DNA of 57,707 nucleotides. Source: a virus (lineage: Duplodnaviria > Caudoviricetes). The notes under the pieces are model-generated. The model made no database searches and was not told the origin of the DNA. It was given only the letters and a program-made list of their open reading frames with translations. The DNA lies in the IMG/VR virus record IMGVR_UViG_3300025276_000004, positions 1 to 57,707 of that record; one strand, given 5' to 3'. Below, in pieces: positions 11,898 through 57,707 of this stretch. Positions within the stretch are counted from its first letter, which is position 1, and each line of letters starts with the position of its first letter. Both the position numbers and the translations under genes were made by a program.

Positions 11898-11904
11898 TTT
11901 GTTC

Positions 11905-11922
11905 TCTATAAGGAACTTAGAA
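11905..11922 (-). promoter_or_regulatory. T7-like phage promoter (class L), leftward into the head genes
   Basis: TTCTAAGTTCCTTATAGA on minus strand; one of five copies. Confidence 0.75.
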
Positions 11923-13694: not shown

Positions 13695-13718
13695 CTCTAT
13701 CCCCTATGTTGCATTGTC

Positions 13719-13736
13719 CCTATAAGGGACTTAGAG
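13719..13736 (-). promoter_or_regulatory. T7-like phage promoter (class L) upstream of terL
   Basis: CTCTAAGTCCCTTATAGG on minus strand, 25 bp from the terL start. Confidence 0.75.
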
Positions 13737-14133: not shown

Positions 14134-14260
14134 AAGAAGTCCTCCAGTCCCCCCATTAGGTTACTATATATCTATCTATAGTCTATCTCTTAGAACTCTC
14201 CCAGGGCTTGTAGCAACTGTAAGGGTAGACACAACACTAGTCTCTGTATGGATAGTCAGT

Positions 14261-14283
14261 AATCTGCCCACGGGGGTCAGATT
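14261..14283 (+). promoter_or_regulatory. Hairpin motif H1 (candidate virion-RNAP promoter)
   Basis: AATCTGCCC-ACGGG-GGTCAGATT, 8 of 9 stem pairs, upstream of the first early gene. Confidence 0.7.
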
Positions 14284-14321
14284 TAGGAAGAATTAATTAT
14301 CTCTCTTGAAAGGAGAACACT

Positions 14322-15460: not shown

Positions 15461-15568
15461 TAGGGTGGCTATTCATAACCGCTTGGTTGGTCTTTTGCAT
15501 ATGGTATGCTTGGGATCACTATCAGGAACTAATAGGCAATCGTCCTAAACACTAAAGGGATCTCTTGG

Positions 15569-15591
15569 AATCTGACCACAGGGGTCAGATT
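15569..15591 (+). promoter_or_regulatory. Hairpin motif H2 (candidate virion-RNAP promoter) upstream of SSB
   Basis: AATCTGACC-ACAGG-GGTCAGATT, perfect 9-bp stem. Confidence 0.75.
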
Positions 15592-15635
15592 TTAAAAGAT
15601 TTTTTAATCTACATCCATATAAAAGGAATATAACT

Positions 15636-16371: not shown

Positions 16372-16432
16372 CTCAGAAAGGAATCCCCAAGGGGGGATAC
16401 TATATTTAAAAAGTCTTCAAAAAGACTTTAGC

Positions 16433-16455
16433 AATTCGCCCACGGGGGGCGAATT
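16433..16455 (+). promoter_or_regulatory. Hairpin motif H3 (candidate virion-RNAP promoter)
   Basis: AATTCGCCC-ACGGG-GGGCGAATT, perfect 9-bp stem. Confidence 0.75.
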
Positions 16456-16697
16456 TAAAAAGATTGCAGCTAAAGCTACTCTCTTTATTTCAAAAAGTTT
16501 CCATAGAAACTTTAAGGGTTCAAGGATCTCTAGAAGATCCTTGAACTCAAAAAGCTGGTGATTACCGACAAAAGGCACTTAGAATACCAGAGGCAATAAA
16601 TATTTCATATATAGTTTACTTACTAATGGCGCTGTACGTACTTATAGCAGTCATACTCAAACGACCATAACACAACTAGTCAGGAAAGGCTATCAAA

Positions 16698-20962: not shown

Positions 20963-20989
20963 ATAAATTACCTCTTATAGTGCTAAATG

Positions 20990-21012
20990 AATTCGACCAC
21001 AGGGGTCGAATT
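20990..21012 (+). promoter_or_regulatory. Hairpin motif H4 (candidate virion-RNAP promoter) upstream of the replication operon
   Basis: AATTCGACC-ACAGG-GGTCGAATT, perfect 9-bp stem. Confidence 0.75.
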
Positions 21013-21035
21013 TTTAAAGAGAATAAGTATCTCTT

Positions 21036-21053
21036 CCTATAAGGAACTTAAAG
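21036..21053 (-). promoter_or_regulatory. T7-like phage promoter (class L) driving terS
   Basis: CTTTAAGTTCCTTATAGG on minus strand. Confidence 0.75.
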
Positions 21054-27805: not shown

Positions 27806-30100
27806 ATGTCAGCACTCCAAGAGATAGTTGACTACCTTGTTAATCGCGTAGATGGGGTAAGTCCAGCAAGACGCAGACCTCACTTAGCAGGTCTTCTCTT
27901 GCGACTATCAGTAGACTACAGTGAGCGCATGGAAGATTACGTTCTCAAAAGCATCTCAATATTACAGATGCAATTTACAAAAGATACTAGCTCTAGTCCA
28001 GCAGGTACTACAACACTGACCAATGCATCTACAAAGATAGGTCAGAGTGTTGGACGAGAGTTAGATCGGGAACCCCTACCTTGGGGTTCTCAAGTATCCA
28101 TAGGTGACTTGTTTATAGAAGCCTTATACAACTTAAACTTCATAGAACTATCATATGCCAAGACTAGGAACAGTTGTCACGTTGTGTCAGCTGCCCCTCG
28201 TTGGTTTGAGTTAGGCTCTATACCACCTAAAGGAACTAGCTTCCCTTTGGCTGCAACCACTACTGAGAAGCCTAAGGATATCACCAAGATGTTTCAAAAC
28301 ATTAATGGTTCTAACAGGCCAGTCATTAAAGGGAGACTTGAAGGTGACTCTATCAACAGGTATGCTCCTTGGGTGCAAGCAATAAACAAACTACAGCAGA
28401 CAGCGTGGACTATTAACAAGCCAGTCTACGAAGCAATGGTAGCTAACAGAGATGTGTTTATCTCTGAGGAACCAGTGGATGACAACGATGCCAAGGAACT
28501 TAAACGTAGAAGTAAAATGGTTGAGTGGGCATTCATATCTGAGAAGGCACGTAAACTGTCTGAGTTAGATGAGTTCTACCAGTACTTAGATGTAGACTAC
28601 AGAGGTAGGTTCTATTACTGTGAAAGCTTTATGAACTACCAAGGATCTGATTTAGCTAGAGGCTTGTTTAAATTCAAACACGCCAAGCCAATGACTGAGA
28701 GTGGGCTACAGTGGTTAGCTATACACACTGCATCTGTGTTCAACATGTCTTATGGCATCGATGAGATACCTGACTGGTGTGAAGCAGACTATCGAAGCCA
28801 CTTAGAAAGTGAGGGGTTAGATAATATATCTGTTGATAAGATGACACTGGAAGATAGGATCGCTTGGACTAATGAGTACATGAGTGAAATTAAAGACGCA
28901 GGTAAACAACAACAGTTCTCTAGTGATGCTGAGAAGAAAGTATCTTTTCTAGCTGCTTGTGTAGAATGGTATGAGTTTGACTGTGCCTTCAAGGACAATC
29001 GTATACACATGACATCCCTGCCAATACCTATAGATGGTAGTAACAATGGGTGGCAACACCTAGGAGCTATCTCAAAGGATGAACAGACTGGAGATCTTGT
29101 AGGTTTAATACCCTCCAATATACAAAAAGATTTCTATGTTCAGACTGCAAAGGAGATGATCAACCTGTGTAAGGATGAAAGACTAAGCTCCATACTTGCA
29201 TCTATGCCTATGAAAAACATACGCAAAGGTATATCTAAACGTGGCTCAATGACTAGGGCATACTCAGCAGGGTCTAAGAAGATAGCTGAGAACATGTTCT
29301 TTGATTGTAAGTCTGAGGATTACCACACCCTGTATGGGATTACCCAAGACGATTGTACTAAGCTTGCAAAGCTTCTTATAAAAGCAATCGACAAGGTATG
29401 CCCCGGACCTCTCTCTACTATGAGCTACCTACAGAACCTATCAATGTATCAACTAGGCTCACACGTTAAGGTAGACTCTAATGGTTACGAAGCTAACTCT
29501 GAGTACAGAGAGTACTCTCAGCTACGTGATGACCTGATGAAGAAAAACTTCAAGACTGATGAAGACCTAGAAAAACTAAATGATGTTGTTATAAAACTGA
29601 AAGAGTTTACCACTAGGCTTAAACATGGTAAGGGAGATGATAAGGTTACGTGGAGTACTCCTTCTGGATTCAATGTTATCTATGAGAAATGGATAATGCA
29701 AGACAGGAAAGCAAGGGGTCGCATCAAAGGCTATGGTAACAAGACAGGTCAAGTCACCCATGTTGCTTTAGTTCCTACACGTATGCCTGATAGGCGAGGG
29801 TTTATCTGTGGTATGTCACCTAACTACATACACTCTATGGATGCTAGTCACATGGCTCTCGTTATATCCGAATGGAATGGTTGCTTTGCAGCTGTACACG
29901 ACAGCTTCAGTACTCATGCATCAGATGTAGACAGACTACTAGGACTAACAAAACAAGTGTTTATACGTATGTATAACTACGAAAACTACTTTGAAGTCAT
30001 ACGTAACTTCATAACAGATGCCGAGGATGATGTTGAACAACCTTCACTCGGCACCCTAGATATAAAGGAGATTGAAAACAGTGACTACTTCTTCGCGTAA
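27806..30100 (+). CDS. Single-subunit DNA-dependent RNA polymerase (T7-like), RNAP-1
   Basis: DYRGRFY, motif A PIPIDGSNNGWQH, motif B RKGISKRGSMTRAYSAG, PNYIHSMDASH, motif C VHDSFST, C-terminus SDYFFA. Confidence 0.95.
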   Translation: MSALQEIVDYLVNRVDGVSPARRRPHLAGLLLRLSVDYSERMEDYVLKSISILQMQFTKDTSSSPAGTTTLTNASTKIGQSVGRELDREPLPWGSQVSIGDLFIEALYNLNFIELSYAKTRNSCHVVSAAPRWFELGSIPPKGTSFPLAATTTEKPKDITKMFQNINGSNRPVIKGRLEGDSINRYAPWVQAINKLQQTAWTINKPVYEAMVANRDVFISEEPVDDNDAKELKRRSKMVEWAFISEKARKLSELDEFYQYLDVDYRGRFYYCESFMNYQGSDLARGLFKFKHAKPMTESGLQWLAIHTASVFNMSYGIDEIPDWCEADYRSHLESEGLDNISVDKMTLEDRIAWTNEYMSEIKDAGKQQQFSSDAEKKVSFLAACVEWYEFDCAFKDNRIHMTSLPIPIDGSNNGWQHLGAISKDEQTGDLVGLIPSNIQKDFYVQTAKEMINLCKDERLSSILASMPMKNIRKGISKRGSMTRAYSAGSKKIAENMFFDCKSEDYHTLYGITQDDCTKLAKLLIKAIDKVCPGPLSTMSYLQNLSMYQLGSHVKVDSNGYEANSEYREYSQLRDDLMKKNFKTDEDLEKLNDVVIKLKEFTTRLKHGKGDDKVTWSTPSGFNVIYEKWIMQDRKARGRIKGYGNKTGQVTHVALVPTRMPDRRGFICGMSPNYIHSMDASHMALVISEWNGCFAAVHDSFSTHASDVDRLLGLTKQVFIRMYNYENYFEVIRNFITDAEDDVEQPSLGTLDIKEIENSDYFFA

Positions 30101-30362: not shown

Positions 30363-30416
30363 AAATTAAAAACCCCCAAGGTATCATATAGATATCCTTG
30401 GGGGTTTATTTTTTTT
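30361..30416. terminator. Bidirectional intrinsic terminator between the two genome arms
   Basis: A-tract, AAACCCCCAAGG...CCTTGGGGGTTT stem, T-tract. Confidence 0.85.
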
Positions 30417-33400
30417 AGTGTCCGAAATACTGCATTGCGATAACCTGACCATTAGGTAGCGTGTAACCAAACTTCTTCAAGTCTTTCTTAAGCTGAATCT
30501 TGTTGGCGTTGGTTTGCTTAATCATCCTATTAAGTCTTGTGTTTAAACTGCCACCGTATTCTGGATCAGCTGAACCAAAGTAATAATCCATCTCACGAAC
30601 GAACATCCTAAGCTGCCTCACATTAGGTTTTGCAGGTGGGTTATGAACATTATACCCAACAACTTGCATCTTCAATCTAAGATCATTAGAAACGTCACTG
30701 GTGCTTACGCTATCACTGTTCATAAACTTACCGATACGAGATACTATATTAGCCATCTGTTTCTTACCAGTTTTTTTATTAACAGATACCTTTAGCATGT
30801 GTTGCATATACACAGCCTCATTAGCTGTAACCTCTGCGCTGTCATCTAATTTCGACATCTTCTCGTTGAACCTTTTAGTAGCAGCTTCTAAAGATATCTT
30901 AGCTTGCTCTAGATAGCTCCAATTGAGTGTAGCTTTCTCCCAGTTCTTGTTGACTTCCTCTAACATAACATCATAACCATTAGCATCCATCTTGAATGCG
31001 TCATAGATTGTATGCATATAAGGGAGTCCACCAGAAGCAGCTGTTAATCTTTTAAAAGACTCACCACTAGCCGTCATCATGACCACCGCCGCATCAATAG
31101 CTTGGATAGGGGCAACCGCAGAGCCACCATACGCAAGCTCTCCGGGAATCTGTTTACCATCTTGGTTTTTTGGTGCAGCCGCAGTAGCTTCTTTATTGTA
31201 AGATGCAACTGTAACTTTTTCAAACTCACCTTCTGATAAACTCTGAGGGCTTAACTTGTAAGTGGACATGTCAGCATTGTCATATCCTGTAGAAGCTTCT
31301 CCACCTATATGTATTTGCATACCGCTAGGTCCAGTTATTATAAAAGGCTCATTCATCATTGCGTGTTTAGCAGCGATAGCCCTCATAAGAGATCTGGCTT
31401 CTATCGGTTCATCACCTAATACTTCTTTAATAGATTTAGCATACCTTGAGTTTAAGGCACCAGCCAGTTCAGGTAATCCACTGTCAGTATCAGATTGTTT
31501 GTAAGCTTCTGCCGCATTCGCTAAATCTAATTCAAACTGAGTTGGACCTACCAACCCTGCTTCCTTATTCTGTCGAATATTCGTCTGCCTAATTACCTCA
31601 ATAACTTCTTGGATATATTTACCAAAGCTTTCAATCTCTTTACCATACCCAAATGTCATGATAGTATACTTGGCTAAGTCACGATTAGCAAAAACTTCCA
31701 TAGCTATATTGTCCATAGACGATATCTTTTCTGGAGCTAAACTCCATCCCTCCGTAAAGATACTCTCAGAGGCAAGACCTATAAGCCTGTCCCTCATGTC
31801 ACCATTGTCTAAATTAGATATCCCTTGTGATCTCATGACACCTGTTAAGAATGCTGTATCAGACTTGCCCAATAGCATAGCATTACTTGCAGGTCCATTG
31901 GTCTTACCATCTATGTAAGCGTTCAAGTAAGTTGTAAAGCCTGTGTTAGTCACACCATTTTTAAAATCCATATACTTTTTGAATTCCATAAGAGCATCTA
32001 TATAAATAGTAGCATCATCACCATTCTTTGTGATCAACTTAATAAGACGCTGGTCTGATTCAGACTCTGGATTAAGATTAAACCCATTGACTTTTGGAAA
32101 CGCAGGGTTGTCTAAAGGTACACCATTAGTTATTGCTTCTATAATATTATCATAGTCAGTGTCTGATATTGCCATCAACGATGTCAACCTAGCACCATAC
32201 CCATATAACTCATTTGATTTTTGAGTTAATAAAAAGTCCCTTTGATCTGGTAGGTAGGTATCACCAGCTTGATTTAAAACTGTAGCAGTCTTACCTTTAA
32301 TCTCCGCTTGTGTTGAGCCAGCTACAAATGTCTGAGGGATTAAAAGCATTGCGAACATTTGACGTAGGTTTCTTTCTTGCCGACTACCAATCTTTATATT
32401 AACTGGATTAACACCCCTTGTCGCAAACCTAACTTGCTTGGAAGTTGTAGGATTGAAATGTGACTGTTGTGGTGTAAGTCTTCCTTGATAACCTTGTATG
32501 TTCCAAGACAAATAGTTTGCACTAGCATGGTCTTGAGCTAAAGCTCTGACCTCATTAGCTAACTTGTTACGCTTCATGTTCATGTTACCTTCAGGATCAT
32601 ACACTCTTTCCTTAAGCTTTAACCTTGCGTCAGCTTGGAACCTACGATCTTGCATGGATTTAGACGCTGCAAACTTATCCAACGCAGTTGAACCAACACC
32701 ACTGATCTCAGCCTCCCAAGCTTGTGTATCATTACTTGCTAAAATATTTAGAGAAGTTGCCATAAGTATTTTCATTCTCTGCTTGTCAACTACTTGAGCA
32801 ATACTGGAAAGATTTTTTATAGCCTCTTGCATCATGAAGCCCATCTTCTGACCTGACTTACCACCAGATATGTATCTAGCTACGTTACGTCCTACGTCAG
32901 TCTTACTGATATCATTCTCGTTCTTAGCTTTCAAAGGTCTGACCAGCTGCCTAGGAAAAAACTTCTTCCTTTCTAATGAACCCAACTCCATAACAGCTTC
33001 CCCTTGAGGGGTCAGTGCGTATACAGTTTGCCTATCTTCTCCTGTAAACTTTCTAACTAACTCAGGGTTAGCCTCAGCCCACAGGTGTTTGAACGCTGCA
33101 CCTAATGTCTCTGCTTCCCTAGTCTCTATCCTCCTAGCCTCTTGATACAGAGGGTCTCCTTCTGGAACCCCTTGAGCTTTAAGTGTAGCGTTCTTCGCAC
33201 GGATGTATTCAAGATGTATCTCTTGACCTATCATGTTATTGCCAGTTGTTTGCGTAACCTTAGAGAGTGCCGCAATAGGCGCTCCCTTTTCTAGTAACGA
33301 CTCCTGACCCATAGCTTCTTCAAGGGCATCCTTAGTCTGTTGTGACTCATTACCTAAGATATTGAACATAGCGTTCTCAACTACAAGTGATGCAACCTCA

Positions 33401-34116
33401 GTATACATGGGGTTAGGTATCTTAAATCCAGAAGGGTTAGTAGTAATGGAGTCATTACCTGCCCGACTAATAGCTGAAAGTAAATCACCTTCAGAGTATT
33501 TAGATATCTCAGTAGATAACTCAGGGCCTACCACACCAGCCTTAACTGCTGTGTAAGCTGATGTACCATGCCCACTAAGACCTATACCTAAGATACCTTG
33601 TTCAACTAAAGATGTCATTTTGTCAGCACGTTTCTGAATGCCACCATCTGTGTATGTCTCAGAATTAGCAGGGACTCTCCTAAATATCTTAGGCTGTAGG
33701 ACAACCAGTCCATCTTCATCCCGCTGAACTTCTTTCCTGTCGTACTCATCCCTTGTCGCACTCTTAACGTAGTCGAGAGGTCTGTTAAAAACATCCCTAA
33801 CTTCAAACCTAGGGTCAGAAGCAGGTCCTGTCACTATCTCTGTATCTAACGCATCGACTGCTATATCTTGACCAAGCGCATCAGCTGCTTCCTCTGGAGA
33901 AAAATTTGTAATAGCCTCACTGAGGGACTGTTGAGGGGTAGGTTGAGAGGTAGGTTGAGATTGCTCTACCATATCATCAGCAACTTTCTGAGAGAAATTA
34001 AAAGAGCCTTGAGAGTTACCCCCCTCAAGACCCTCAAGACTACTCTCTATCATACCTCTCTCTTTTAACTTCTCTACTGGAGTTAGTATTTTTGAAATAC
34101 TGGGTATAGCCATCAA
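30415..34116 (-). CDS. Second single-subunit RNA polymerase, probable virion-packaged RNAP (N4 vRNAP-like), RNAP-2
   Basis: GYQGRL..FNPTTSKQVR, motif A YIDGKTNGP, motif B RDLAKYTIMTFGYG (R-x3-K-x7-YG), motif C TIYDAF; last gene of the internal-virion cluster. Confidence 0.85.
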   Translation of the reverse strand: MMAIPSISKILTPVEKLKERGMIESSLEGLEGGNSQGSFNFSQKVADDMVEQSQPTSQPTPQQSLSEAITNFSPEEAADALGQDIAVDALDTEIVTGPASDPRFEVRDVFNRPLDYVKSATRDEYDRKEVQRDEDGLVVLQPKIFRRVPANSETYTDGGIQKRADKMTSLVEQGILGIGLSGHGTSAYTAVKAGVVGPELSTEISKYSEGDLLSAISRAGNDSITTNPSGFKIPNPMYTEVASLVVENAMFNILGNESQQTKDALEEAMGQESLLEKGAPIAALSKVTQTTGNNMIGQEIHLEYIRAKNATLKAQGVPEGDPLYQEARRIETREAETLGAAFKHLWAEANPELVRKFTGEDRQTVYALTPQGEAVMELGSLERKKFFPRQLVRPLKAKNENDISKTDVGRNVARYISGGKSGQKMGFMMQEAIKNLSSIAQVVDKQRMKILMATSLNILASNDTQAWEAEISGVGSTALDKFAASKSMQDRRFQADARLKLKERVYDPEGNMNMKRNKLANEVRALAQDHASANYLSWNIQGYQGRLTPQQSHFNPTTSKQVRFATRGVNPVNIKIGSRQERNLRQMFAMLLIPQTFVAGSTQAEIKGKTATVLNQAGDTYLPDQRDFLLTQKSNELYGYGARLTSLMAISDTDYDNIIEAITNGVPLDNPAFPKVNGFNLNPESESDQRLIKLITKNGDDATIYIDALMEFKKYMDFKNGVTNTGFTTYLNAYIDGKTNGPASNAMLLGKSDTAFLTGVMRSQGISNLDNGDMRDRLIGLASESIFTEGWSLAPEKISSMDNIAMEVFANRDLAKYTIMTFGYGKEIESFGKYIQEVIEVIRQTNIRQNKEAGLVGPTQFELDLANAAEAYKQSDTDSGLPELAGALNSRYAKSIKEVLGDEPIEARSLMRAIAAKHAMMNEPFIITGPSGMQIHIGGEASTGYDNADMSTYKLSPQSLSEGEFEKVTVASYNKEATAAAPKNQDGKQIPGELAYGGSAVAPIQAIDAAVVMMTASGESFKRLTAASGGLPYMHTIYDAFKMDANGYDVMLEEVNKNWEKATLNWSYLEQAKISLEAATKRFNEKMSKLDDSAEVTANEAVYMQHMLKVSVNKKTGKKQMANIVSRIGKFMNSDSVSTSDVSNDLRLKMQVVGYNVHNPPAKPNVRQLRMFVREMDYYFGSADPEYGGSLNTRLNRMIKQTNANKIQLKKDLKKFGYTLPNGQVIAMQYFGH

Positions 34117-48714: not shown

Positions 48715-50469
48715 TTACGCGCATTCTCGTTGCCCAGTATTCGGGTCAAAAAAACACGCCTCCGCTTTCGGAGTACTCTCCTCTGCAGGGATTTCAATCT
48801 CGCTCGTTGACGCCGCTTCTTCTTCCACGGCCTCATTAAAGATTCCGTACCTTTTTCCAGAGAGCCTAAATGTGGTACAGCCCTTGGCTCCCTCTTTCCA
48901 TGCCGTTTCGTAAACACGTTTGAAATCATCATATGTTACATCATCCCCTACATTACAGGTCTTAGAACATGCACTATCAATGTAGTGCTGGGCTAGAGTT
49001 AAAACAGCTAAGTGTTCATAAACGGAAATGTCATCTGCCTTTCGTCCAGAAACTCCTTTCGCGTAAGCGTAGTCCTCAACATCTTCGTAACGTGGTCCGT
49101 CAAAAGTCTGGATGGTACGCTGATACGAATGTGAAAACACTGGTTCAATTCCTCCACTGATATTATCCGCCACAAGGCTAATTGTACCCGTAGGAGCGAT
49201 AGAGGTAAGGTGCGAGTTACGAATTCCATGTTTGCGAATCTCCTTCTGTACGAATGCTGGGAGTGTACGAATGAAGTTACCCTTAAGGTACTCTTCACGA
49301 TACAATGGGAAGGCCCCTTTTTCTTCTGCTAGTTTAGCTGATGCAAAGTATGTGTTGTCTCGTAGACATGCAAATACTTTTTCCATCCATCGGAGAAAAG
49401 ACTTAGACCCGTATTCAAACCCAAGCATCTCACCTGCATTTGCTAGACCTGTTATCCCAAGTCCCATCCTACGTTTATCCTTTGCCTCATTCTCTTGCTC
49501 ACGTAAAGGGTATATAGTTCTGTCAACTACATTGTCTTGAGCCCGAACTACGTGTGGTATATCTTCTTTGAATTGATCAAAATTAAATGTGTACTTACCA
49601 CTGTCAGATTTATCTAGGTATCTTGTAAGATTAAAAGAACCTAAGAGACAAGCTCCGTAAGGTGGTAGTGGTTGCTCACCACATGGGTTAGTAGCTGCGA
49701 TGTCTTCACAGTAGTAAAGATTATTCATCTCTTGTATCCGGTCTATAAACAAGACTCCGGGTTCAGCCCAATCCCATGTAGACTCCATAGCTAGATCCCA
49801 TATCTCATTTGCAGAAACTGTATCATGTACAATACCATCAAAGATAAGATCAAAGCTATCATCCTCTTTAGACAATGCTTCCATAAATTCGTCAGTGATT
49901 CCTAGAGATATGTTAAAACCAGTAAGCTTATCAGAGTTACGTTTAGCAGTAATGAAGTCAACAATATCTGGGTGGTCAATACGTAAGACACCCATTTGAG
50001 CACCACGCCTGTGACCGCTGCTACTAATGGTCTGGCATACTGCATCAAAGATAGACATAAAAGATATAGGCCCAGATGCTTGGCTCTCCAAGGATTTAAT
50101 TGTATTTCCCTTAGGGCGAACTTTAGAGAAATCATAACCGATACCTCCTCCTCTTCTCATAGTCTCTGCTGCTTCTTTAGCACGATCCATAATAGAATCC
50201 ATACTATCCTTTATCTCCCCTGAGACAAAACAATTATAAGCAGTAACTAACTTGTTGGCTCCCATAGCAGATTGTACTCTACCAGCTGGGAGAAATCTCA
50301 TGTTACCAAAGATATCTTCTAGAATCCATTGGTGTTCTGCACTATCACATAGGGACCGAGCAAGACGTTTCACCTTACCATCGAAAGTCTCTCCTTGTTG
50401 TCTGTACTTCATTGCATCTAATTCTTCAGACAGAGGTGTAGATGGCCCCTCATAAGTGATGTTTCGCAT
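48715..50469 (-). CDS. nrdJ: Class II (adenosylcobalamin-dependent) ribonucleotide reductase
   Basis: FLPAGR, YNCFV, GGGIGYDFS, RRGAQM, TNPCGEQPL, RRMGLG, IAPTGTIS, SKT.N; no small-subunit gene seen. Confidence 0.88.
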   Translation of the reverse strand: MRNITYEGPSTPLSEELDAMKYRQQGETFDGKVKRLARSLCDSAEHQWILEDIFGNMRFLPAGRVQSAMGANKLVTAYNCFVSGEIKDSMDSIMDRAKEAAETMRRGGGIGYDFSKVRPKGNTIKSLESQASGPISFMSIFDAVCQTISSSGHRRGAQMGVLRIDHPDIVDFITAKRNSDKLTGFNISLGITDEFMEALSKEDDSFDLIFDGIVHDTVSANEIWDLAMESTWDWAEPGVLFIDRIQEMNNLYYCEDIAATNPCGEQPLPPYGACLLGSFNLTRYLDKSDSGKYTFNFDQFKEDIPHVVRAQDNVVDRTIYPLREQENEAKDKRRMGLGITGLANAGEMLGFEYGSKSFLRWMEKVFACLRDNTYFASAKLAEEKGAFPLYREEYLKGNFIRTLPAFVQKEIRKHGIRNSHLTSIAPTGTISLVADNISGGIEPVFSHSYQRTIQTFDGPRYEDVEDYAYAKGVSGRKADDISVYEHLAVLTLAQHYIDSACSKTCNVGDDVTYDDFKRVYETAWKEGAKGCTTFRLSGKRYGIFNEAVEEEAASTSEIEIPAEESTPKAEACFFDPNTGQRECA

Positions 50470-50527
50470 GTATATCCTCTTACTATTTTTATTGTTAAGT
50501 TAACTTGAAGGGAGATCATAAGACCTC

Positions 50528-50545
50528 CCTATAAGGAACTTAGAG
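50528..50545 (-). promoter_or_regulatory. T7-like phage promoter (class L) upstream of nrdJ
   Basis: CTCTAAGTTCCTTATAGG; the transcript would begin with hairpin GGGAGGTC-TAT-GATCTCCC, like T7 late leaders. Confidence 0.8.
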
Positions 50546-50550
50546 AATTC

Positions 50551-51066
50551 TTACTTTGAGTTGTAAGGATTTCTAAATTTAGCTAGTGATCCACCAAAGT
50601 AGAATGATACAATAGCAATCATTGTTTCACTCATCACAGCAAACCAAGTCAATGGGATACCACTAGATGTGATCACTGTCTTTACGTTCTGAACAGTTGC
50701 ACCAATCCCTAAGAACCCACCAGAAGTTTCCTTCGTATCATAGATCTCAAACCACACTATGTCAGGTTGTAAAGCTAAGAAGTAGGCTACCAGCACAAAG
50801 GATGTTATTACAGCATACACTATAAACCTTCGCGTAGTAGACCTGTGCGGGTCTGTCTTTGAGACTGCCTTTTCAAACTTAGCTTTAGCCTGTAGTAATT
50901 GTATTTCTTTATCTATCTTTAAGACTTCGTTGTTAGATTGCTTTGATAGCATATCCATTGTGTGCTTACGTTCAGCTGCAGCTATCTCATTTCTTTGTGC
51001 CAGAAACTTAAAGAGAAAGCCAGAGATGGCAGAGACTCCCCCAGTTATCATTGTTGTTGAAATCAT
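50551..51066 (-). CDS. Membrane protein (holin-like)
   Basis: Several hydrophobic helices, TRRFI, IVSFYFG motif. Confidence 0.6.
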   Translation of the reverse strand: MISTTMITGGVSAISGFLFKFLAQRNEIAAAERKHTMDMLSKQSNNEVLKIDKEIQLLQAKAKFEKAVSKTDPHRSTTRRFIVYAVITSFVLVAYFLALQPDIVWFEIYDTKETSGGFLGIGATVQNVKTVITSSGIPLTWFAVMSETMIAIVSFYFGGSLAKFRNPYNSK

Positions 51067-51084
51067 TCTACCATCTCCTCTTAA

Positions 51085-51327
51085 TTAACTTTCGTCAGGT
51101 TCGTCAGATAACACTGCATCTTCTGGTTCGTTTGACATATCGGATGTCAACATATCAACAAAAGCTTTCTTGCCTACCGATAGTTGATCAAGGTTAAATT
51201 GAGTAGAGTTAATCTTACGATCTAAATCTGATATATGATTAACCATCATCTTTTGATTATCTGTTAGTTGATCCTCAGTGTAGTCTACATCGTTAATAGT
51301 AATGACTTGTGTTTTTTTCTCGGTCAT
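51085..51327 (-). CDS. Hypothetical tail-associated protein
   Basis: ITINDVDY..DQL, coiled coil, FNLDQL. Confidence 0.65.
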   Translation of the reverse strand: MTEKKTQVITINDVDYTEDQLTDNQKMMVNHISDLDRKINSTQFNLDQLSVGKKAFVDMLTSDMSNEPEDAVLSDEPDES

Positions 51328-51344
51328 ATTATTTTCCTTTTAAA

Positions 51345-51803
51345 TTATATTGTTGATGGTGCTTCTGTAAAAGCTTTGTATGCGTCTTTAACTGCATCAG
51401 TCCAAGCTGCGTTTGCTATAGCTTGTACCTGTGCTGCTTCACCACTAATGTCAGTCGCTGTGTGCGCCCAACTTTCTGCAACAGCAACTACAGCTTCTAC
51501 TGCCGCTACTGCTTCTACTGCAGCCTTCGCCTCTGTGGTAACATTACCATCAGAATCTTTCACTTCCTCTACTGCATCGGCAGCTTCTACTGCTTCTACC
51601 GCTTCTACAGCAACTACAGCTTCTGTCTTTGCTGAAGAGAAAGGTTGTAGTACGTGCCTATGAAAGCTTCGAGATAGCTCTGTCTTAGAACCATCGGCCT
51701 TTTCTTCGCTGACTATACTTGCGGCTCTCACCTGTATATGCCACGAATTAACGACCTCGATTTTATCATAGTCTATTGTTTTAGTTAAGTCTCCGTTTGC
51801 CAT
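51345..51803 (-). CDS. Tail fibre partner/chaperone-like protein with an AVE-repeat insertion
   Basis: DKIEV..IQVR..ELSRSFHRHVL.P ... DISGE...VQAIANAAWT; directly follows the tail fibre array. Confidence 0.65.
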   Translation of the reverse strand: MANGDLTKTIDYDKIEVVNSWHIQVRAASIVSEEKADGSKTELSRSFHRHVLQPFSSAKTEAVVAVEAVEAVEAADAVEEVKDSDGNVTTEAKAAVEAVAAVEAVVAVAESWAHTATDISGEAAQVQAIANAAWTDAVKDAYKAFTEAPSTI

Positions 51804-51839
51804 GTTGGCCTCCTGTTTTTACCGTGGCGTAATTGCCAC

Positions 51840-51867
51840 CTGTCTGACCCTGCTATCCTACAGAGTT
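51840..51867 (-). promoter_or_regulatory. Conserved post-tail-fibre hairpin element, copy C
   Basis: AACTCTGT-AGGATA-GCAGGGT-CAGACAG. Confidence 0.65.
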
Positions 51868-54481
51868 AAGGTGTTGTGTATTGACCAGCTACCCTAAGTT
51901 GTTTGCCTGAATAATTAGCATTTGTAGCACCTTGATTAAGGTTGTTTTGAACGAATAAGTACTGAGTATTTCTACCCACAGCAACTGAATCATTTCTTCC
52001 AGAAGTAGTTGTTGTAATAGCTCCACCACCTGTATTATCGCCACTGCTTTTTGCAACAAATGGAATTCTTAACTTTATATCAGCCGTGTTACTTGTTGTT
52101 GGAAAAACTATACCAAACTCAAAGAAAACTTGGTTTCCAATTTTGGTGTAAGTAGCAACATACACAGTAATTGACAGCCCTGCTCCAGATTGGTCTGATA
52201 ATGTATAAGTGCCTTCTTCGTAGTCATCCAGCGTGTTTGCTGCTACGTTAGTTGTAGCTCCTAAGACAACGCCCTTACCAGCTGTGCCGAATATAAGATC
52301 ACCTGTTTTTACGGTAACATCACCGCCTGATGCTATGTTAAACCGTTCTACACGCCCAGTGTACAACTGATCAGAAGGTAAAAAACCAGTGTCAAAAGAG
52401 ATTTGTCCCTTTGCTGATATAGTCAGTGCGCCATTGTCAACACCAATTCCAGCGTGACCAACATTGCCGTTACCTTGATCAGAAATAATACGTATGCCCG
52501 TTGCATCGGTATTTTGTATAACTAGCCCGTCAAATTGCAAAGGCGTAACTATAGCCGCTGATCCTTTTCTTATATTAACCTGTCCTAAATTACTAAGCCG
52601 CATACGTTCTTCATTATTTGTATGGAATAACATATCAGCGTTTTCAAACTGAGTAAGTGAACAAGATTTATCTCCATTAGCAGCATTCGGAGTGACTTGA
52701 ATTGCAAAGCCATTGTTGGCACCAGCTCCAGTTTCATTGCTAGTTAACTGTATGGCCGCCCTACCATTATCTGTTGTGTTGTGTACCTGAAGTTGTCCAC
52801 GAGCAGAGGGAGAAAAAACACCAATCCCAACTTTTCCATCTGCTTTTACAGCTAGACCAGACGTATTCCCAGCATTTGACCTAACTGTTAATGCATAGTC
52901 TGCTGCTGCGGTACTGCCTACTACGATTGATACGCCATCACCATTTGATGTATTCGATTGTGTAAATTCAGCCGCAAAAACATTGTCGTTAGTTACTACA
53001 TCGATCTTGGCGCTCGGTGAGTTTGTGCCAATCCCAAGATTACCGCTGGTACTTAGTGTCATTTGGGGTGCAGCATTGTTAGTAGCAAAGCCTAAGTTGT
53101 GGTTGGTCTCTGTAAAGATAGAGCCAATGCCACCTTCTTCACTGCGTATCCAAGTCTTGACCACAGTACCATCAGACTTCTTGGAAGAAGAGAGATAACC
53201 AGCCCGAGTGTTGTTATTTGTGGATGTTACAGTAACGTAATTGTTAGCCGCTGTACTGACCCCTAGGGTGCCACTAAAAGTAGCCGCACCAGCAGCGTCT
53301 ATTGTTAATCTATCATTATTGCCACCTGTACCAAAAACTAAAGAATCTGAAGTACCTGTGTGCATAATTACTTGATTAGCAGTATCATTTCTTATTACTA
53401 AAGAGCCTGAATTAAGACCACTAAATCTAGCTACATCATTTCCTGTTGCGGAAACATCAAAAAACCCTGCTGAGTCAATTACTAATCTTTGTGTTCCAGC
53501 AGTTGATATTGCAATAGAATTGATGGCTGGAAATGATATGCCTGTGTCAAGATCACCTGTGTTTGCAATTGAAGGCGAACTAACAGAGCCATCTGAAACA
53601 CTCAGGACACCAGTCATCGCACCGCCAGCTTTAGGTAATGCAGCGTTAGCTGTGGTAGTCGTACTGGTTAATACTGCATCACGGGTGGCTATATCCACAC
53701 CATCAAACGTGGAGTTAGTTGTCACTGCGCCTGTTAAGGCACCTCCAGCTTTAGGGAGTGCAGCACCAGCTGTGGTAGTAGTGCTTGTTAACACAGCGTC
53801 ACGAGTAGCCACATCCACTCCGTCAAACGTAGAGTTTGTGGTAATCGCACCAGTCATTGCCCCACCTGCTAAAGGTAGTTTTGTAGAGTCTGTAGTTGAA
53901 TCTGTTGCCCAAGACAACACACCTGATCCATCAGTCTTTAAGAATTGATTAGCATTACCATCATCATTTGGGAAAGTTAATGTGTAACTTGCGTTAGCCG
54001 AATGTGGGGGTGCCTTAAGTTTAATACCATGAGAGTTCTGAGAGCAATTTAATTGTATGTAACCATCTTGGGAACTACCATCACCTTTAGCTGTAAAGCT
54101 TGGGGTGCTACTAGTAGATACAATTGGTATCGTATCTAGCTTTGCACCATCTACAGATACATCCCGACCATCTACTGTGTTGGTAACAACTAGTGTATCA
54201 ACAGTAGTAGTACCAGTGAATGATTGATTGGCTATAGTAAAAGTTTCAAAGGCTACCATCTCTAAGATATCATTAAGTGCAGCACCAGTAGCTAATACAA
54301 TATCGCTACCATTAGTTGCGGTAAAGTCAGCTGCTGCTAATTTTACACCATTCAGGTACACATCTAAATGATCTATCTGATAACCAGAAGTACCAAAAGA
54401 TGTTTGACCATTGGTAGCCGTAAAGCTCTCCCTTGTTTGTGTTGTTTGTGGGACTGGCAGTACGCCTATATATCCTGACAT
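51866..54481 (-). CDS. Tail fibre protein TF3
   Basis: 871 aa; ATNGQTSF..DVYLNGVKL N-terminal module, 40-aa repeats, GNLGIGT..P repeats, C-terminal LDDYEEGT domain. Confidence 0.85.
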   Translation of the reverse strand: MSGYIGVLPVPQTTQTRESFTATNGQTSFGTSGYQIDHLDVYLNGVKLAAADFTATNGSDIVLATGAALNDILEMVAFETFTIANQSFTGTTTVDTLVVTNTVDGRDVSVDGAKLDTIPIVSTSSTPSFTAKGDGSSQDGYIQLNCSQNSHGIKLKAPPHSANASYTLTFPNDDGNANQFLKTDGSGVLSWATDSTTDSTKLPLAGGAMTGAITTNSTFDGVDVATRDAVLTSTTTTAGAALPKAGGALTGAVTTNSTFDGVDIATRDAVLTSTTTTANAALPKAGGAMTGVLSVSDGSVSSPSIANTGDLDTGISFPAINSIAISTAGTQRLVIDSAGFFDVSATGNDVARFSGLNSGSLVIRNDTANQVIMHTGTSDSLVFGTGGNNDRLTIDAAGAATFSGTLGVSTAANNYVTVTSTNNNTRAGYLSSSKKSDGTVVKTWIRSEEGGIGSIFTETNHNLGFATNNAAPQMTLSTSGNLGIGTNSPSAKIDVVTNDNVFAAEFTQSNTSNGDGVSIVVGSTAAADYALTVRSNAGNTSGLAVKADGKVGIGVFSPSARGQLQVHNTTDNGRAAIQLTSNETGAGANNGFAIQVTPNAANGDKSCSLTQFENADMLFHTNNEERMRLSNLGQVNIRKGSAAIVTPLQFDGLVIQNTDATGIRIISDQGNGNVGHAGIGVDNGALTISAKGQISFDTGFLPSDQLYTGRVERFNIASGGDVTVKTGDLIFGTAGKGVVLGATTNVAANTLDDYEEGTYTLSDQSGAGLSITVYVATYTKIGNQVFFEFGIVFPTTSNTADIKLRIPFVAKSSGDNTGGGAITTTTSGRNDSVAVGRNTQYLFVQNNLNQGATNANYSGKQLRVAGQYTTP

Positions 54482-54505
54482 GTCATGCCTCCTTTATAAT
54501 TTGTT

Positions 54506-54533
54506 CTGTCCGACCCTGTGATCTAACAGGGCT
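54506..54533 (-). promoter_or_regulatory. Conserved post-tail-fibre hairpin element, copy B
   Basis: AGCCCTGT-TAGATC-ACAGGGT-CGGACAG. Confidence 0.65.
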
Positions 54534-54539
54534 AATTTG

Positions 54540-56486
54540 TTATGAATTTGTAACGTATGTACCTGAGACCATTAAATATTTAGAGTTGCCATTAACATAG
54601 GTTGAACTAGCTGTTACTCCGGGATTGTTAAATACCACAGTTGTTCCGTTTGGGCCATGATAACCCATTGTCCCTACAGTAGTTGACCCGCCAAAGTAAG
54701 TATTGTGTGCAATATTAATAGGTGTATAAGCGGAAACATCATTATAAACAGTAAATGGAAGTCCCGTAATTGCGGCGGTTCCACTTGCACTAGAAATATT
54801 AGATGCTTCACTGTAAAAAGTCCAAAACACCATAGAGCCAACCTTAATATAATATCCCCTAGTACTTCCACCGCCAATAGTAGCACCACTGTATCCAACT
54901 GTGAAAGAACCTTTTTCATAATCATCCAGCTTATTAGCAGTCCCATTGCCGCCAAGGAAAACACCGCCTGATAGGTATAGGTCTTTGAAGCGGTTGTTAG
55001 TAGCACCTAATGTTACTTCATCATCACGAGTAGATCCATTTCCAGCACTGGGATATAAAGTATTAGTACCAAAAGCTATTCCGCCATGACCGCTGGCACC
55101 ACGAATAAATAGGTTATCACTAAACTCAACCCCAAACTCCCCCACAGCGTTGCCAGCTTTTTCGAATAACTGAATAGTACCATCATTACTGCCTAAACGA
55201 TTGATTATTGAACACGTAGTATTGTTTACAGTTGTAAGATGTCTACCACTTGCAAGAAATTCATTACCCACTACAGCCCCATTAGAAGTTGCTTTGCCCG
55301 CCAGCACGTTAGAAGAGGAGTCAATATATAACGCGCCTGATGCACCACCTGCACCACGTTCTATTTCTATTCCAGTAGAGTTTGTGGTATCATCTCTTAT
55401 TATGAAGTTACCATTAGCATTTCCCCATCCTGAAGTACCACCTGCCGCAGCTAAATGCCACTGTGATTGTACTGATGAATGATTATTTTTAAGCATAAGA
55501 GCTGTTTGATATGCACTTACACCCTCAATTAAAGCGATAGCCTGTCCTGTTGAATACAAATGTAACTTTTGTGCTGGGGCAGCTATGCCAACCCCAACAT
55601 TTCCTGTGGGGAAATAAGAGACAGTTGGGCTTAACCTTAATGTTTCTGTTACAGCATTATTATAAAATCTAAAAGAAGTGTCAGGGTGATTGTAGACTAG
55701 CTGACCTGATATGTAGCTATTTCCACTTGATGACCCGTCAGAAAACATAACAGCGCCATCTTGGTTTGAGGCAGAGACAACAGTCATACCACTTCTTTGA
55801 TTAGTGCCAGTTCCTCCAATTATTAACTCATTGGCATTGGGGTGGGCGTTTCCGCTAGTAGCAGAGCCAATAATAACAGTTCCTGTCACAGTGCCACCAG
55901 CCTTTGGCAAGGCAGCATTAGCAGTATTTGTAGTAGTCGTTAGCACAGAGTCACGAGTAGCAATATCTACTCCATCAAATGTAGAGTTAGTCGTAATAGC
56001 CCCAGTCATTGCACCACCTGCTTTAGGTAATGCAGCGTTAGCTGTGGTAGTTGTAGATGTTAGGACTGAATTCCTGGCTCCCACATCTACCCCATCAAAC
56101 GTAGAGTTAGTAGTGATGGCACCAGTCATGGCACCACCTTCTCTAGATAAAGCACTGTTCGCATTGTTTAAAGCGGCAGTCGCAGTAGTTGTCGTAGATG
56201 ATAGTATTCCATCTCTTGTTGCTATATCTACCCCATCGAATGTAGAGTTAGTTGTGATAGCCCCAGTCATAGCACCACCTGCTTTAGGTAATGCAGCTGT
56301 CGCTTTGGTTGTTGTATCCGTAAGTACAGCATCCCTAGCAGATACATCTACACCATCTACTAGGTTAGTTCCCATAGCCAGATTACCTGTCATGGTTCCA
56401 CCAGCTCTAGCAAGTGCTGCATCTGCAGTGGTGGTAGTGGATGTTAATGTCACACCACTGCTTGCTAAGTCTCTTGCTTTAGTCAT
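54540..56486 (-). CDS. Tail fibre protein TF2
   Basis: 648 aa; MTKARDLA start, four ~40-aa repeats, FKDLYLSGGV and LDDYEKG C-terminal domain. Confidence 0.85.
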   Translation of the reverse strand: MTKARDLASSGVTLTSTTTTADAALARAGGTMTGNLAMGTNLVDGVDVSARDAVLTDTTTKATAALPKAGGAMTGAITTNSTFDGVDIATRDGILSSTTTTATAALNNANSALSREGGAMTGAITTNSTFDGVDVGARNSVLTSTTTTANAALPKAGGAMTGAITTNSTFDGVDIATRDSVLTTTTNTANAALPKAGGTVTGTVIIGSATSGNAHPNANELIIGGTGTNQRSGMTVVSASNQDGAVMFSDGSSSGNSYISGQLVYNHPDTSFRFYNNAVTETLRLSPTVSYFPTGNVGVGIAAPAQKLHLYSTGQAIALIEGVSAYQTALMLKNNHSSVQSQWHLAAAGGTSGWGNANGNFIIRDDTTNSTGIEIERGAGGASGALYIDSSSNVLAGKATSNGAVVGNEFLASGRHLTTVNNTTCSIINRLGSNDGTIQLFEKAGNAVGEFGVEFSDNLFIRGASGHGGIAFGTNTLYPSAGNGSTRDDEVTLGATNNRFKDLYLSGGVFLGGNGTANKLDDYEKGSFTVGYSGATIGGGSTRGYYIKVGSMVFWTFYSEASNISSASGTAAITGLPFTVYNDVSAYTPINIAHNTYFGGSTTVGTMGYHGPNGTTVVFNNPGVTASSTYVNGNSKYLMVSGTYVTNS

Positions 56487-56512
56487 ATGTTAAGTCTCCT
56501 TTATAATTTGGA

Positions 56513-56540
56513 CTGTCTGACCCTGTAATCCAACAGGGTT
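56513..56540 (-). promoter_or_regulatory. Conserved post-tail-fibre hairpin element, copy A
   Basis: AACCCTGT-TGGATT-ACAGGGT-CAGACAG. Confidence 0.65.
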
Positions 56541-56546
56541 ATGTTA

Positions 56547-57707
56547 CTAAGATGCTGCTAGGTAGGTTACTGCAAAATGAATATCAACACCAGAATTGTT
56601 AAAATCATTGTGTTTCATTGTATCATAGGCAGCATCACTTGGGTTGTTATAAAAAGTAAGAGTGGTTCCACCCCCATCAGTATAAACTGAATAACCGGGG
56701 TTATCTATATATCTGCCTATTATAGCTCCTACTGATGATTTACCACTCGATACCGCATAAGGTAGCGTTCCAATTATCACTGTTGCACTAGAACTTCTAT
56801 TAGAAAAACTATAGATATTGCCAGCAACAGTAACTAATCTTCCTACTTTCGTATACCAAACATTGCTAGTGCAACTCCCAGTAGTTGGGGATGCTGTCCA
56901 TGTGCCAACTTCGTAATCGTTAAGAAACTCACCATTAGTATCAAATCTAACACCGCCTGATAGGTAGAGGTCTCTGAAGGTTCCCGAAGAAAAACCTAAA
57001 TCAACAGTGCCATTCGCAGCCGAACCATTTTTAAATGGTGTTAGACTAACGCCATCAAAGCGTAGACCAGTGGCATCGCCTGAGCTTCTTATTAAAACTC
57101 TATCTGAGCTTATATCAATTTGACCTCTGGGAGTCCCTGCCTCATAAAGCTCTATTATACCCCCTTCTGCTGTTCTGTTTATTTTTAAAGGTATACCTGC
57201 ACGACTTATACCTACCATTCCATCAGAAAGAAGATTAATACCTGCTACGTTGTTGCCGACTACGTTCGCATTAGTTGTGCCAATGCCAACAGTTCCGCTG
57301 CTGTTTATAACAAGAGAGTTTGCTGGGGCTTGCTGAATGTAAATAGGTGTGACAAAACCAGAAGCCCGATCATCATTTGCTCTGACGATGTTAAGGTCAC
57401 CGCCAGAGATTTGAAATCCCCAGTTCTTTTGGTTACTTGCTGCGTTTGTGTCTCGCAGCCAAAGTTGGGTTGTGCCTGTGCTGTCAAAGGTTGTGCCACC
57501 AGCATGTGTTGTTGAAGTTCCAAGTACTTGACCTGTGACCGAAACTCCTGTGGCAGTGGTGGCTAGTTTAGTAGCGTTGTTATATCTCAGTTGAACCTCT
57601 GCATTGTTATTACCTAAAATATACAATTCTGATCCGTCAGCATTACCTAGCCTGAGGTTATTTCCATATATTAAAAGATCACCACTGCCGCTTTCTTTAA
57701 TAAATGA
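56547..57707 (-). CDS. Tail fibre protein TF1, 3' part (starts at 971 across the junction)
   Basis: FRDLYLSGGV, LNDYEVGTWT, YTKVGRLV C-terminal domain; open through the window end. Confidence 0.85.
   Translation of the reverse strand, partial: SFIKESGSGDLLIYGNNLRLGNADGSELYILGNNNAEVQLRYNNATKLATTATGVSVTGQVLGTSTTHAGGTTFDSTGTTQLWLRDTNAASNQKNWGFQISGGDLNIVRANDDRASGFVTPIYIQQAPANSLVINSSGTVGIGTTNANVVGNNVAGINLLSDGMVGISRAGIPLKINRTAEGGIIELYEAGTPRGQIDISSDRVLIRSSGDATGLRFDGVSLTPFKNGSAANGTVDLGFSSGTFRDLYLSGGVRFDTNGEFLNDYEVGTWTASPTTGSCTSNVWYTKVGRLVTVAGNIYSFSNRSSSATVIIGTLPYAVSSGKSSVGAIIGRYIDNPGYSVYTDGGGTTLTFYNNPSDAAYDTMKHNDFNNSGVDIHFAVTYLAAS

Follow-up and report, generated by a model that had tools for sequence, protein, structure and literature searches.

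Hairpins located just past the stop of an upstream cistron in a polycistronic mRNA, such as the repetitive extragenic palindromic (REP) and intercistronic stabilisers of the puf operon and of malE-malF, can protect the upstream message segment once the RNA has been cut and set unequal expression of the genes concerned, and phage hairpin operators, as in T4 gene 43 or the MS2 coat protein, present a sequence-specific loop by the ribosome-binding site (RBS) of the gene that is regulated. Another intergenic structure is the promoter-early stem-loop (PeSL) cassette of T4-type phages, in which a stop codon, an AT-rich flank, a promoter, a stem-loop, a Shine–Dalgarno (SD) sequence and a start codon follow each other in this order, and whose copies are repeated beside plastic genes, where they mediate modular shuffling (Arbiol et al. 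2010, PMC2839356). Here, we describe a 27-nt hairpin element that occurs three times on the minus strand of the virus record IMGVR_UViG_3300025276_000004 (IMG/VR; Duplodnaviria, Caudoviricetes), each time at the end of a tail fibre gene. The stretch of DNA that was analyzed, hereafter the window, is the complete record of 57,707 bp, which bears a 152-bp repeat at both ends. The element is genuine, and its structure lies on the sense strand; its usual home is the single-copy leader of a small gene behind the last fibre gene, and not every fibre end; and this phage alone, among 83 distinct relatives, has it at fibre–fibre junctions. The element probably tunes the expression of neighboring genes and marks the points at which fibres are swapped.

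The PeSL cassette is the closest known analogue of this element. Like it, the element belongs to a short intergenic cassette with a stop codon in an AT-rich flank, a stem-loop with G-T pairs, an SD sequence and a start codon, which is repeated within the genome beside its most plastic genes and provides recombination points for shuffling. At our locus, this layout is seen in the three copies at three junctions, in the contigs whose similarity breaks at the element, and in the swapped order of fibres in a related contig, L243. Unlike in PeSL, no sigma-70-type promoter overlaps the element (none of 20 promoter-like sites does so on the coding strand, 14.8 such sites being expected by chance), the stem is not a G/C-run terminator, the loop and tail are conserved while the stems covary across phage families, and the element holds a fixed position in the late fibre region, where it is single-copy in most genomes.

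Tail fibre genes decide the host range of marine phages and are the most rapidly exchanged of phage genes. An RNA motif of the fibre locus that is widespread (in a roseophage, an OM43 phage, and many uncultured marine phages), lies outside Rfam, covaries in an unusually clean manner and is linked to a protein family that is abundant and has no assigned function offers a handle on two questions, namely what ratio of fibre to accessory protein is made and where fibre cassettes recombine. With two cultured phage–host pairs carrying the motif, CRP-804 with FZCC0196 and Melnitz with OM43 H5P1, it is also directly testable.

Three Copies of a 27-nt Hairpin in the Fibre Block

Read on the minus strand, the element consists of a 7-bp stem, a 6-nt loop, and a 7-nt tail (7 + 6 + 7 + 7), and is thereby one nucleotide shorter than the 28 nt ascribed to it by a first-pass annotation of the locus. 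Copy 1 (56513–56539) pairs 56533–56539 with 56520–56526 around the loop UGGAUU (56527–56532) and ends on the tail CAGACAG (56513–56519). Copy 2 (54506–54532) pairs 54526–54532 with 54513–54519, with one G-U pair at the base of the stem, the loop UAGAUC, and the tail CGGACAG, and copy 3 (51840–51866) pairs 51860–51866 with 51847–51853, including two G-U pairs, with the loop AGGAUA and the tail CAGACAG; as the annotation had it, pairing is kept through G-U wobbles. The annotation had also placed the three copies at 56513, 54506, and 51840 of the minus strand, 0–7 nt behind a fibre stop codon. These positions were recovered both by a scan with the pattern CTGTNNGATNRCAGGGTCRGACAG at up to 3 mismatches, which has exactly three matches in the window, all on the minus strand (51840–51863, 54506–54529, and 56513–56536), and none in 100 shuffles, and by a covariance model, which scores copies 1, 2, and 3 at 49.3, 46.5, and 38.7 bits, the next best site in the window reaching 12.2 bits. 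No fourth copy was found when the whole virus record was searched. The spacing is right for copies 1 and 2, which lie 7 nt past the stops of fibres 1 and 2 and, respectively, 33 and 31 nt ahead of the ATG of fibres 2 and 3, and wrong for copy 3, where the gap from the stop of fibre 3 is −1 nt, the last A of TAA doubling as the first base of the stem.

The local folds of copies 1, 2, and 3 reach −10.9, −10.4, and −7.8 kcal/mol, with z-scores from −2.0 to −2.6. Between copies, the element is 76–86% identical (repeat family D16), when the fibre tips align over their first 35–66 residues only, at 35–46% identity, and the last 70–90 residues of the three tips yield no alignment. Because what these tips share is the hinge region only, the conservation of the element is not the leftover of a recent duplication of fibre ends, and loop and tail are indeed conserved next to coding ends that differ, as first noticed. 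The annotation was likewise right in not seeing a normal terminator in this hairpin: no U-tract lies downstream of any of the three copies, the stem being followed by YRGACAG, and of six terminator-like sites none lies at an element on the minus strand. On the opposite, plus strand, copy 2 together with its AT-rich flank (54514–54531) passes a simple terminator scan as a weak site, which the other two copies fail.

A Structure Maintained by Covariation on the Sense Strand

To place these copies among relatives, IMG/VR was scanned with the exact pattern, which gave 37 loci, 18 of them holding the full element in the same context and the rest being chance matches inside coding sequence; 79 further loci, forming a sample independent of the element, were fetched via the small protein encoded downstream. 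In a MAFFT alignment of 38 relatives, 94% of the cells are paired, against 69.5% after shuffling (0 of 500 shuffles reach the observed value) and 37–46% when the partner is slid, and double changes occur at all 7 stem pairs; the rows of this alignment were chosen by a hairpin-finding script, which inflates the percentage paired and not the compensatory changes. RNAalifold independently gives the same helix, with 6 of its 7 pairs. The covariance model has 94 matches, of which 83 are distinct, and in these 83 sequences, which were aligned to the model and are hence biased towards structure, 93% of the cells are paired against 61.9% after shuffling, the covariation score is 0.829 against 0.251, and compensatory changes are again present at all 7 pairs. 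Last, a scan that left the arms free and fixed a TTA flank, a TGGATT loop and a YRGACAG tail returned 120 matches, 37 with 7/7 pairs and 7 with 6/7; the 44 matches with at least 6/7 pairs spread across 22 different stems, when about 1.6 such matches are calculated to arise by chance. About 44 different stems are found to carry the same loop and tail.

Over 45 distinct stems, G-U cells outnumber A-C cells by 24 to 3 (14 to 3 when the closing pair is left out), which places the helix on the sense strand. The sense-strand structure proposed from the window holds among relatives. Around the stem, the UA that precedes it and the GA within the tail are invariant (83/83), and the loop reads N-G-G-A-U-N, its G-G-A-U positions being present in 63–75 of 78 sequences.

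We could not relate this structure to a described family. Using cmscan with Rfam 15 on positions 50000–57707 (E ≤ 10), 6 chance-level matches were obtained, with 0 at the three elements. The literature on marine podovirus hairpins and on tail-fibre stem-loop recombination yielded no description of the element, nor do the available portions of the P-SCSP1u paper and of PMC12629253 mention it. For want of both an Rfam match and a published description, the element appears to be undescribed as an RNA motif.

The Element Usually Stands in the Leader of a Small Gene

The first-pass annotation had tied the element to fibres with LDDYEEG-type C-termini, and had also pointed to the family of the small conserved gene that lies behind fibre 3 (51345–51803, minus strand; 152 aa). 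The second association is the tighter one, as 79 of the 83 distinct elements precede a homologue of this gene, judged from its first 12 residues. Fibre genes follow in 2 of the 83, both in this phage, and the remaining 2 precede a small gene cut after 9 codons (L291) and a terminator (L184). In L291 (5418–5657), an intact element precedes a small gene that stops after 9 codons, with an HNH endonuclease gene coming next; the small gene was apparently invaded by a homing endonuclease. Conversely, the element is present just upstream of the small gene at at least 44 of the 79 loci sampled via the small protein. As for the fibres, the upstream open reading frame (ORF) has a DYEEG-type hinge in 54 of the 63 cases long enough to judge, and the small gene follows DYEEG-type fibres even at loci without the element. 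In at least two relatives (L085 and L243), the upstream fibre has an intramolecular-chaperone-type C-terminus instead. The element is moreover single-copy in 5/5 other phage records searched whole, and the fibre–fibre junctions of other multi-fibre contigs hold short hairpin-less linkers that are genome-specific and repeated.

Among relatives, 57 of 65 have the stem −1 to 11 nt behind the stop codon, the start codon lies 10–67 nt from the element, and in the shortest forms the tail directly abuts GGAG. Cultured carriers are the roseophage CRP-804 (Autographiviridae) and the OM43 myovirus Melnitz (Kyanoviridae, T4-like), such that the element sits before the small gene in podoviruses and in a T4-like myovirus alike, and occurs with alpha- and betaproteobacterial hosts. 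At two myovirus-type loci, the exact sequence TATAAATA, which we take to be the T4 late-promoter consensus, lies 7 nt upstream of the stem, and in Melnitz CATAAATA lies 8 nt upstream; transcripts initiated at TATAAATA would begin at the hairpin. A T4-type late promoter ahead of the hairpin is not a general feature, though, because it is properly placed in 3 of the 83 only.

At the same junction, cyanophage relatives have a different structured leader (P-RSP2, L121 2937–2995; P-SCSP1u, L328; S-B05, L327; S-SBP1, L330; as well as L100 and L108–L116). Its full form, found in P-RSP2, P-SCSP1u, L100, and L108–L116, consists of a hairpin overlapping the fibre stop (AGAC-9 nt-GTCT) and then a conserved linear stretch, and all these leaders have a second hairpin with the SD sequence GGAG in its loop. 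That the cyanophage leader also begins with a stop-overlapping hairpin suggests that a hairpin is generally wanted at this junction.

The small protein encoded behind the element (gp36 in CRP-804) has a match to phrog_6228, a PHROG of unknown function, and none of the 57 members of its family has a Pfam family. It has 3,404 homologous metagenome clusters, all unnamed, and its matches in the ESM Atlas are viral hypothetical clusters only. The predicted fold comprises five strands followed by two C-terminal helices, with a pLDDT of 87.5 for the window protein and 95.0 for a 103-aa homologue. In comparisons of this fold with the PDB, Foldseek returned nothing at E ≤ 0.001 and the best Z was 5.2, no meaningful match; weak, non-significant resemblances at Z 3.6–4.0 concern the coat proteins of single-stranded RNA (ssRNA) phages, Pur-alpha, and PC4-like proteins, and a search of BFVD gave uncharacterised phage proteins only. 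Homologues measure 83–139 aa, with or without an AVEAVEAV-type repetitive insert, which in the window (51474–51635, minus strand; repeat family D6) brings the protein to 152 aa and is predicted, with lower confidence, to form a helical hairpin. In some contigs, two fibre and small-gene pairs succeed each other (L079, 4642–6327; L109, around 8947), which indicates that the small gene behaves as part of the fibre module.

Some further identities of the element were considered, most of which were rejected. A CsrA/RsmA site is doubtful, the phage being without CsrA and the motif being incomplete in the window copies: most relatives and 2 of the 3 window copies have GGA in the loop, and the GGA of the tail is missing in copies 1 and 3. 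Hosts of the alpha- and betaproteobacterial type may also mostly be without CsrA. A promoter of a phage polymerase is at odds with a stem that changes freely with compensation, and with the presence of the element in a T4-like myovirus. The target hairpin of a diversity-generating retroelement would call for a reverse transcriptase, and a search of the complete genome for RVT_1 came back empty at E ≤ 1, the template repeat not having been searched for. Finally, a pseudoknot between the loop GGA and a UCC behind the tail is found in one subgroup only and is absent from window copies 2 and 3.

Origin of the Three Copies

In the window, the linker between fibres 1 and 2 (56487–56546, minus strand) is made of an AT-rich flank, the element, and then the AAAUUAUAAAGGAG ribosome-binding region, and belongs to repeat family D10 (86 nt), being 73% identical to the next linker; the latter, between fibres 2 and 3 (54482–54539, minus strand), has the same build. 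The linker between fibre 3 and the small gene (51804–51865, minus strand) is the leader of the small gene. Behind the tail of copies 1 and 2, the sequence (AAAUUAUAAAGGAG, then 7–9 nt to the ATG) is that of the small-gene leader of relatives. The whole leader (AT-rich flank, hairpin, tail, and RBS), and not the hairpin alone, has been copied to both fibre–fibre junctions, with copy 3 in the ancestral position, ahead of the small gene. All three junctions as a result carry the same signal. An insertion with target duplication was rejected as an explanation of copy 2, for the CAAATTA found on both its sides is the normal leader sequence of relatives. Immediately behind copy 3 stands a second small hairpin (51824–51839, minus strand; GUGGC-AAUUAC-GCCAC), which is common to L050, L111, L209, L241/L243, and phage CRP-804, and which shows a compensatory change (GUGAC/GUCAC) in L243.

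In the contig L243, the closest relative of fibre 3, the order of the homologous fibres is reversed and a single linker recurs at the two junctions. These junctions keep both flanks (CAUAACAAAUUA ... AAAGGAGGC) without hairpin and tail, and the element stands only before the small gene. Orthologous junctions can therefore have or lack the hairpin, and within one genome the linkers are homogenised.

What the Element May Do

We favor, at about even chances of being right, the view that the element acts in cis within the mRNA and governs how strongly the flanking cistrons are expressed, through processing, stability, or translation. Specifically, we infer that its working form is RNA rather than single-stranded DNA (ssDNA), that a trans factor is at work, and that it serves processing or translational control. 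The hairpin would form in the late polycistronic mRNA, between a fibre stop codon and the next RBS, with the next start codon 10–45 nt further on, and would present a 7-bp stem whose sequence is free, the loop NGGAUN, the invariant UA at its 5′ foot and the YRGACA tail at its 3′ foot; a putative factor would read the loop and the single-stranded feet and thereby set the relative output of both flanking cistrons. By one route, the RNA would be cut within the tail, so that the hairpin would stay on the fibre message as a 3′ cap that protects it, while the next cistron would acquire a new 5′ end; by another, the access of ribosomes to the nearby SD site would be controlled, and both routes may apply. 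The repeated leader, being the only conserved stretch of a hypervariable region, would at the same time supply homology for the exchange of fibre modules. As in the puf and malE-malF examples, the hairpin comes directly after the stop of the upstream cistron in a polycistronic mRNA; its loop and flanks are conserved across unrelated genomes, which is not known of those hairpins, and processing is here a putative step. Given that the element is found in T7-like and T4-like phages, the factor would not be specific to one phage polymerase, and given the spread over phage and host types, it would be either universal (a ribonuclease or the ribosome) or a factor travelling with the element.

Several observations weigh against an mRNA element. 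About 35 of the 79 small-gene loci are without it, so that it is dispensable, and in four cultured pelagiphages (HTVC168P, Kolga, Jormungand, and Bylgja) the small gene comes without the element. In L243, the closest relative, the linkers of the orthologous fibre junctions are without the hairpin, and the extra copies of this phage might have arisen neutrally, through homogenisation of linkers. The RNA runs X19 and X20, whose tables are identical, consist of assembled contigs only, none of which covers an element, and neither an RNA end nor cleavage or binding was observed. The stem is modest, at −8 to −11 kcal/mol, the loop of copy 2 reads AGA instead of GGA, and the excess of G-U cells would equally fit a hairpin in single-stranded sense DNA.

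Among the alternatives, the repeated leader might be a pure recombination linker, that is, homology for fibre swaps between co-infecting relatives by means of the phage annealing protein and exonuclease, with no RNA function here, which we consider unlikely. The boundary was analyzed by comparing 51300–57000 with Logan contigs from two separate studies, one DNA run each (X2 and X3), which, as assemblies of mixed populations, show mosaic boundaries and not mechanism. In five contigs of X2 and two of X3, similarity to the window extends as far as 56541, which is the UA foot of copy 1, and beyond it these 7 contigs continue for some 200–255 nt without resemblance to the window. Two more joints come from X2: one contig passes from 54544 to 56909, the intervening sequence not being known, and another from one DYEEG hinge to the other (52232 to 54949), where the shorter side of the joint is a mere 22 nt. 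Since contigs lose similarity exactly at its 5′ edge, the element also marks a boundary of the fibre-gene mosaic, under our favored reading no less than under this one, much as the annotation had envisaged a fixed anchor for the exchange of receptor-binding modules. These breaks and joints speak for a recombination linker, as do the reordered fibres of L243 with one linker at both junctions, the genome-specific linkers likewise repeated in other multi-fibre contigs, the gp2.5-like annealing protein and the exonuclease that the phage encodes, and the published precedent of PeSL cassettes in T4-type phages (PMC2839356). However, homology alone leaves unexplained about 44 different stems in which pairing is kept while loop and tail stay fixed. 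Furthermore, hairpin-less linkers act as boundaries in L243, a single copy in 5/5 other records leaves no repeat role there, and metagenome contigs may branch at any conserved stretch.

Somewhat more doubtful is a translational operator, whereby the small protein would bind the hairpin and tail and repress or time its own synthesis and, in this phage, also that of fibres 2 and 3. The location of 79 of the 83 distinct elements in the small-gene leader is what an operator would call for, together with the tail that abuts the SD sequence in minimal forms, the joint travel of element and gene between podoviruses and a myovirus, and a small protein with a confident predicted fold (pLDDT 95), no known family, and the weak, non-significant resemblances listed above. 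With the operators of T4 gene 43 and MS2, the element shares a small hairpin, a sequence-specific loop, and an adjacent RBS, binding being putative in our case; unlike them, it is missing from many homologous genes and leaves the start codon outside the hairpin. Against such an operator stand the family genes without a hairpin, its presence being patchy even among close relatives, the lack of any fold match of meaningful score, the persistence of the element without the small gene in L184, and the tandem pairs of L079 and L109, which fit a fibre accessory protein better. A bolder version, which we regard as a longer shot still, makes the hairpin and the small protein a self-contained, horizontally mobile operator–regulator pair, which would pass between podoviruses and myoviruses along with receptor-binding genes. 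If this were true, the operator would now stand ahead of two further fibre genes in this phage, and one small RNA-binding protein would coordinate or switch three alternative fibres, hence host range.

It is highly improbable that the element acts as an ssDNA hairpin, a structure-specific site for a recombinase, a transposase, or a replication protein on the model of attC sites, REP sequences, or IS200/IS605 ends. The locus does have the look of a cassette array, with ORF then hairpin three times in one orientation, and, as with integron attC sites, a structured element stands behind each of several tandem same-direction ORFs, with structure conserved above sequence; recognition goes by structure, few bases being fixed, and the strand asymmetry would also fit a DNA hairpin. 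Yet neither the 45 ORFs scanned against PHROGs nor the RVT_1 search revealed an integrase, a transposase, or a reverse transcriptase, and no attC core sites are evident by eye. The element is 27 nt long when attC sites measure at least 57 nt, and relatives carry one copy only, at one fixed genomic position in all of them and not dispersed. As regards REP sequences with their associated tyrosine transposases (RAYT) or IS200-IS605 elements, there are 3 copies only, all in the fibre block, and no transposase in the PHROG scans. Last, to a transcription terminator or attenuator separating fibre transcription units we give hardly any credence, for although the hairpin is intergenic and immediately behind a stop codon, and although PeSL stem-loops were shown to terminate transcription (PMC2839356), the U-tract is lacking, 0 of the 3 copies are called by the terminator scan on the coding strand, the genome's own terminator-like hairpins have T-runs (repeat family D9), and the element is found in T7-type-polymerase phages as well as in a T4-like phage using the host polymerase.

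Genomic Setting of the Fibre Block

The phage encodes a T7-type RNA polymerase (27806–30097; phrog_414, E 7.5e-99), and the PHROG scan also retrieved genes for a DNA polymerase, a primase-helicase, the gp2.5-like annealing protein, the exonuclease, a terminase, a portal, and a major capsid protein. Its nearest cultured relative is the roseophage CRP-7, at a polymerase identity of 35.7%. The late genes lie on the minus strand and run from about 13.7 kb across the record ends to 30.4 kb, in the order fibre 1, fibre 2, fibre 3, the 152-aa gene, an 80-aa gene, and a holin-like gene. Fibre gene 1 starts at 971 and spans the 152-bp end repeat (971, across the ends, to 56547), its 3′ part occupying 56547–57707 (minus strand; repeat family D4). 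Fibre gene 2 (54540–56486, minus strand; 648 aa; repeat family D2) has an LDDYEKG hinge, a divergent tip, and no PHROG match of its own, and fibre gene 3 (51866–54481, minus strand; 871 aa) has an LDDYEEG hinge and matches phrog_18345, tail fiber, with E 2.6e-20. Across the three fibre genes, an 88-nt unit occurs in nine copies at 120-nt spacing (279–606, 53564–53891, and 55956–56304); these units encode 40-residue shaft repeats and constitute extra homology for fibre–fibre recombination.

At the end of the late block, a 1,233-aa protein (30415–34116, minus strand) has a weak RNA-polymerase match (phrog_414, E 4.3e-7) and may be a virion-borne polymerase, besides the T7-type one at 27806–30097. 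In the early region, a 32-nt motif is present in four copies on the plus strand (14260–14291, 15568–15599, 16432–16463, and 20989–21020); it forms an 8–9-bp hairpin with covarying arms (AATCTGACC/GGTCAGATT vs. AATTCGCCC/GGGCGAATT), a conserved ACRGG loop and a T-run, and these hairpins may be terminators or regulatory hairpins preceding early genes. The partly palindromic TCCCTATAAGGRACTTAGAG has four intergenic copies distributed over both gene blocks (11903–11922, 13717–13736, 21034–21053, and 50526–50545), and may represent a promoter or an operator of the phage; it bears no relation to the fibre element.

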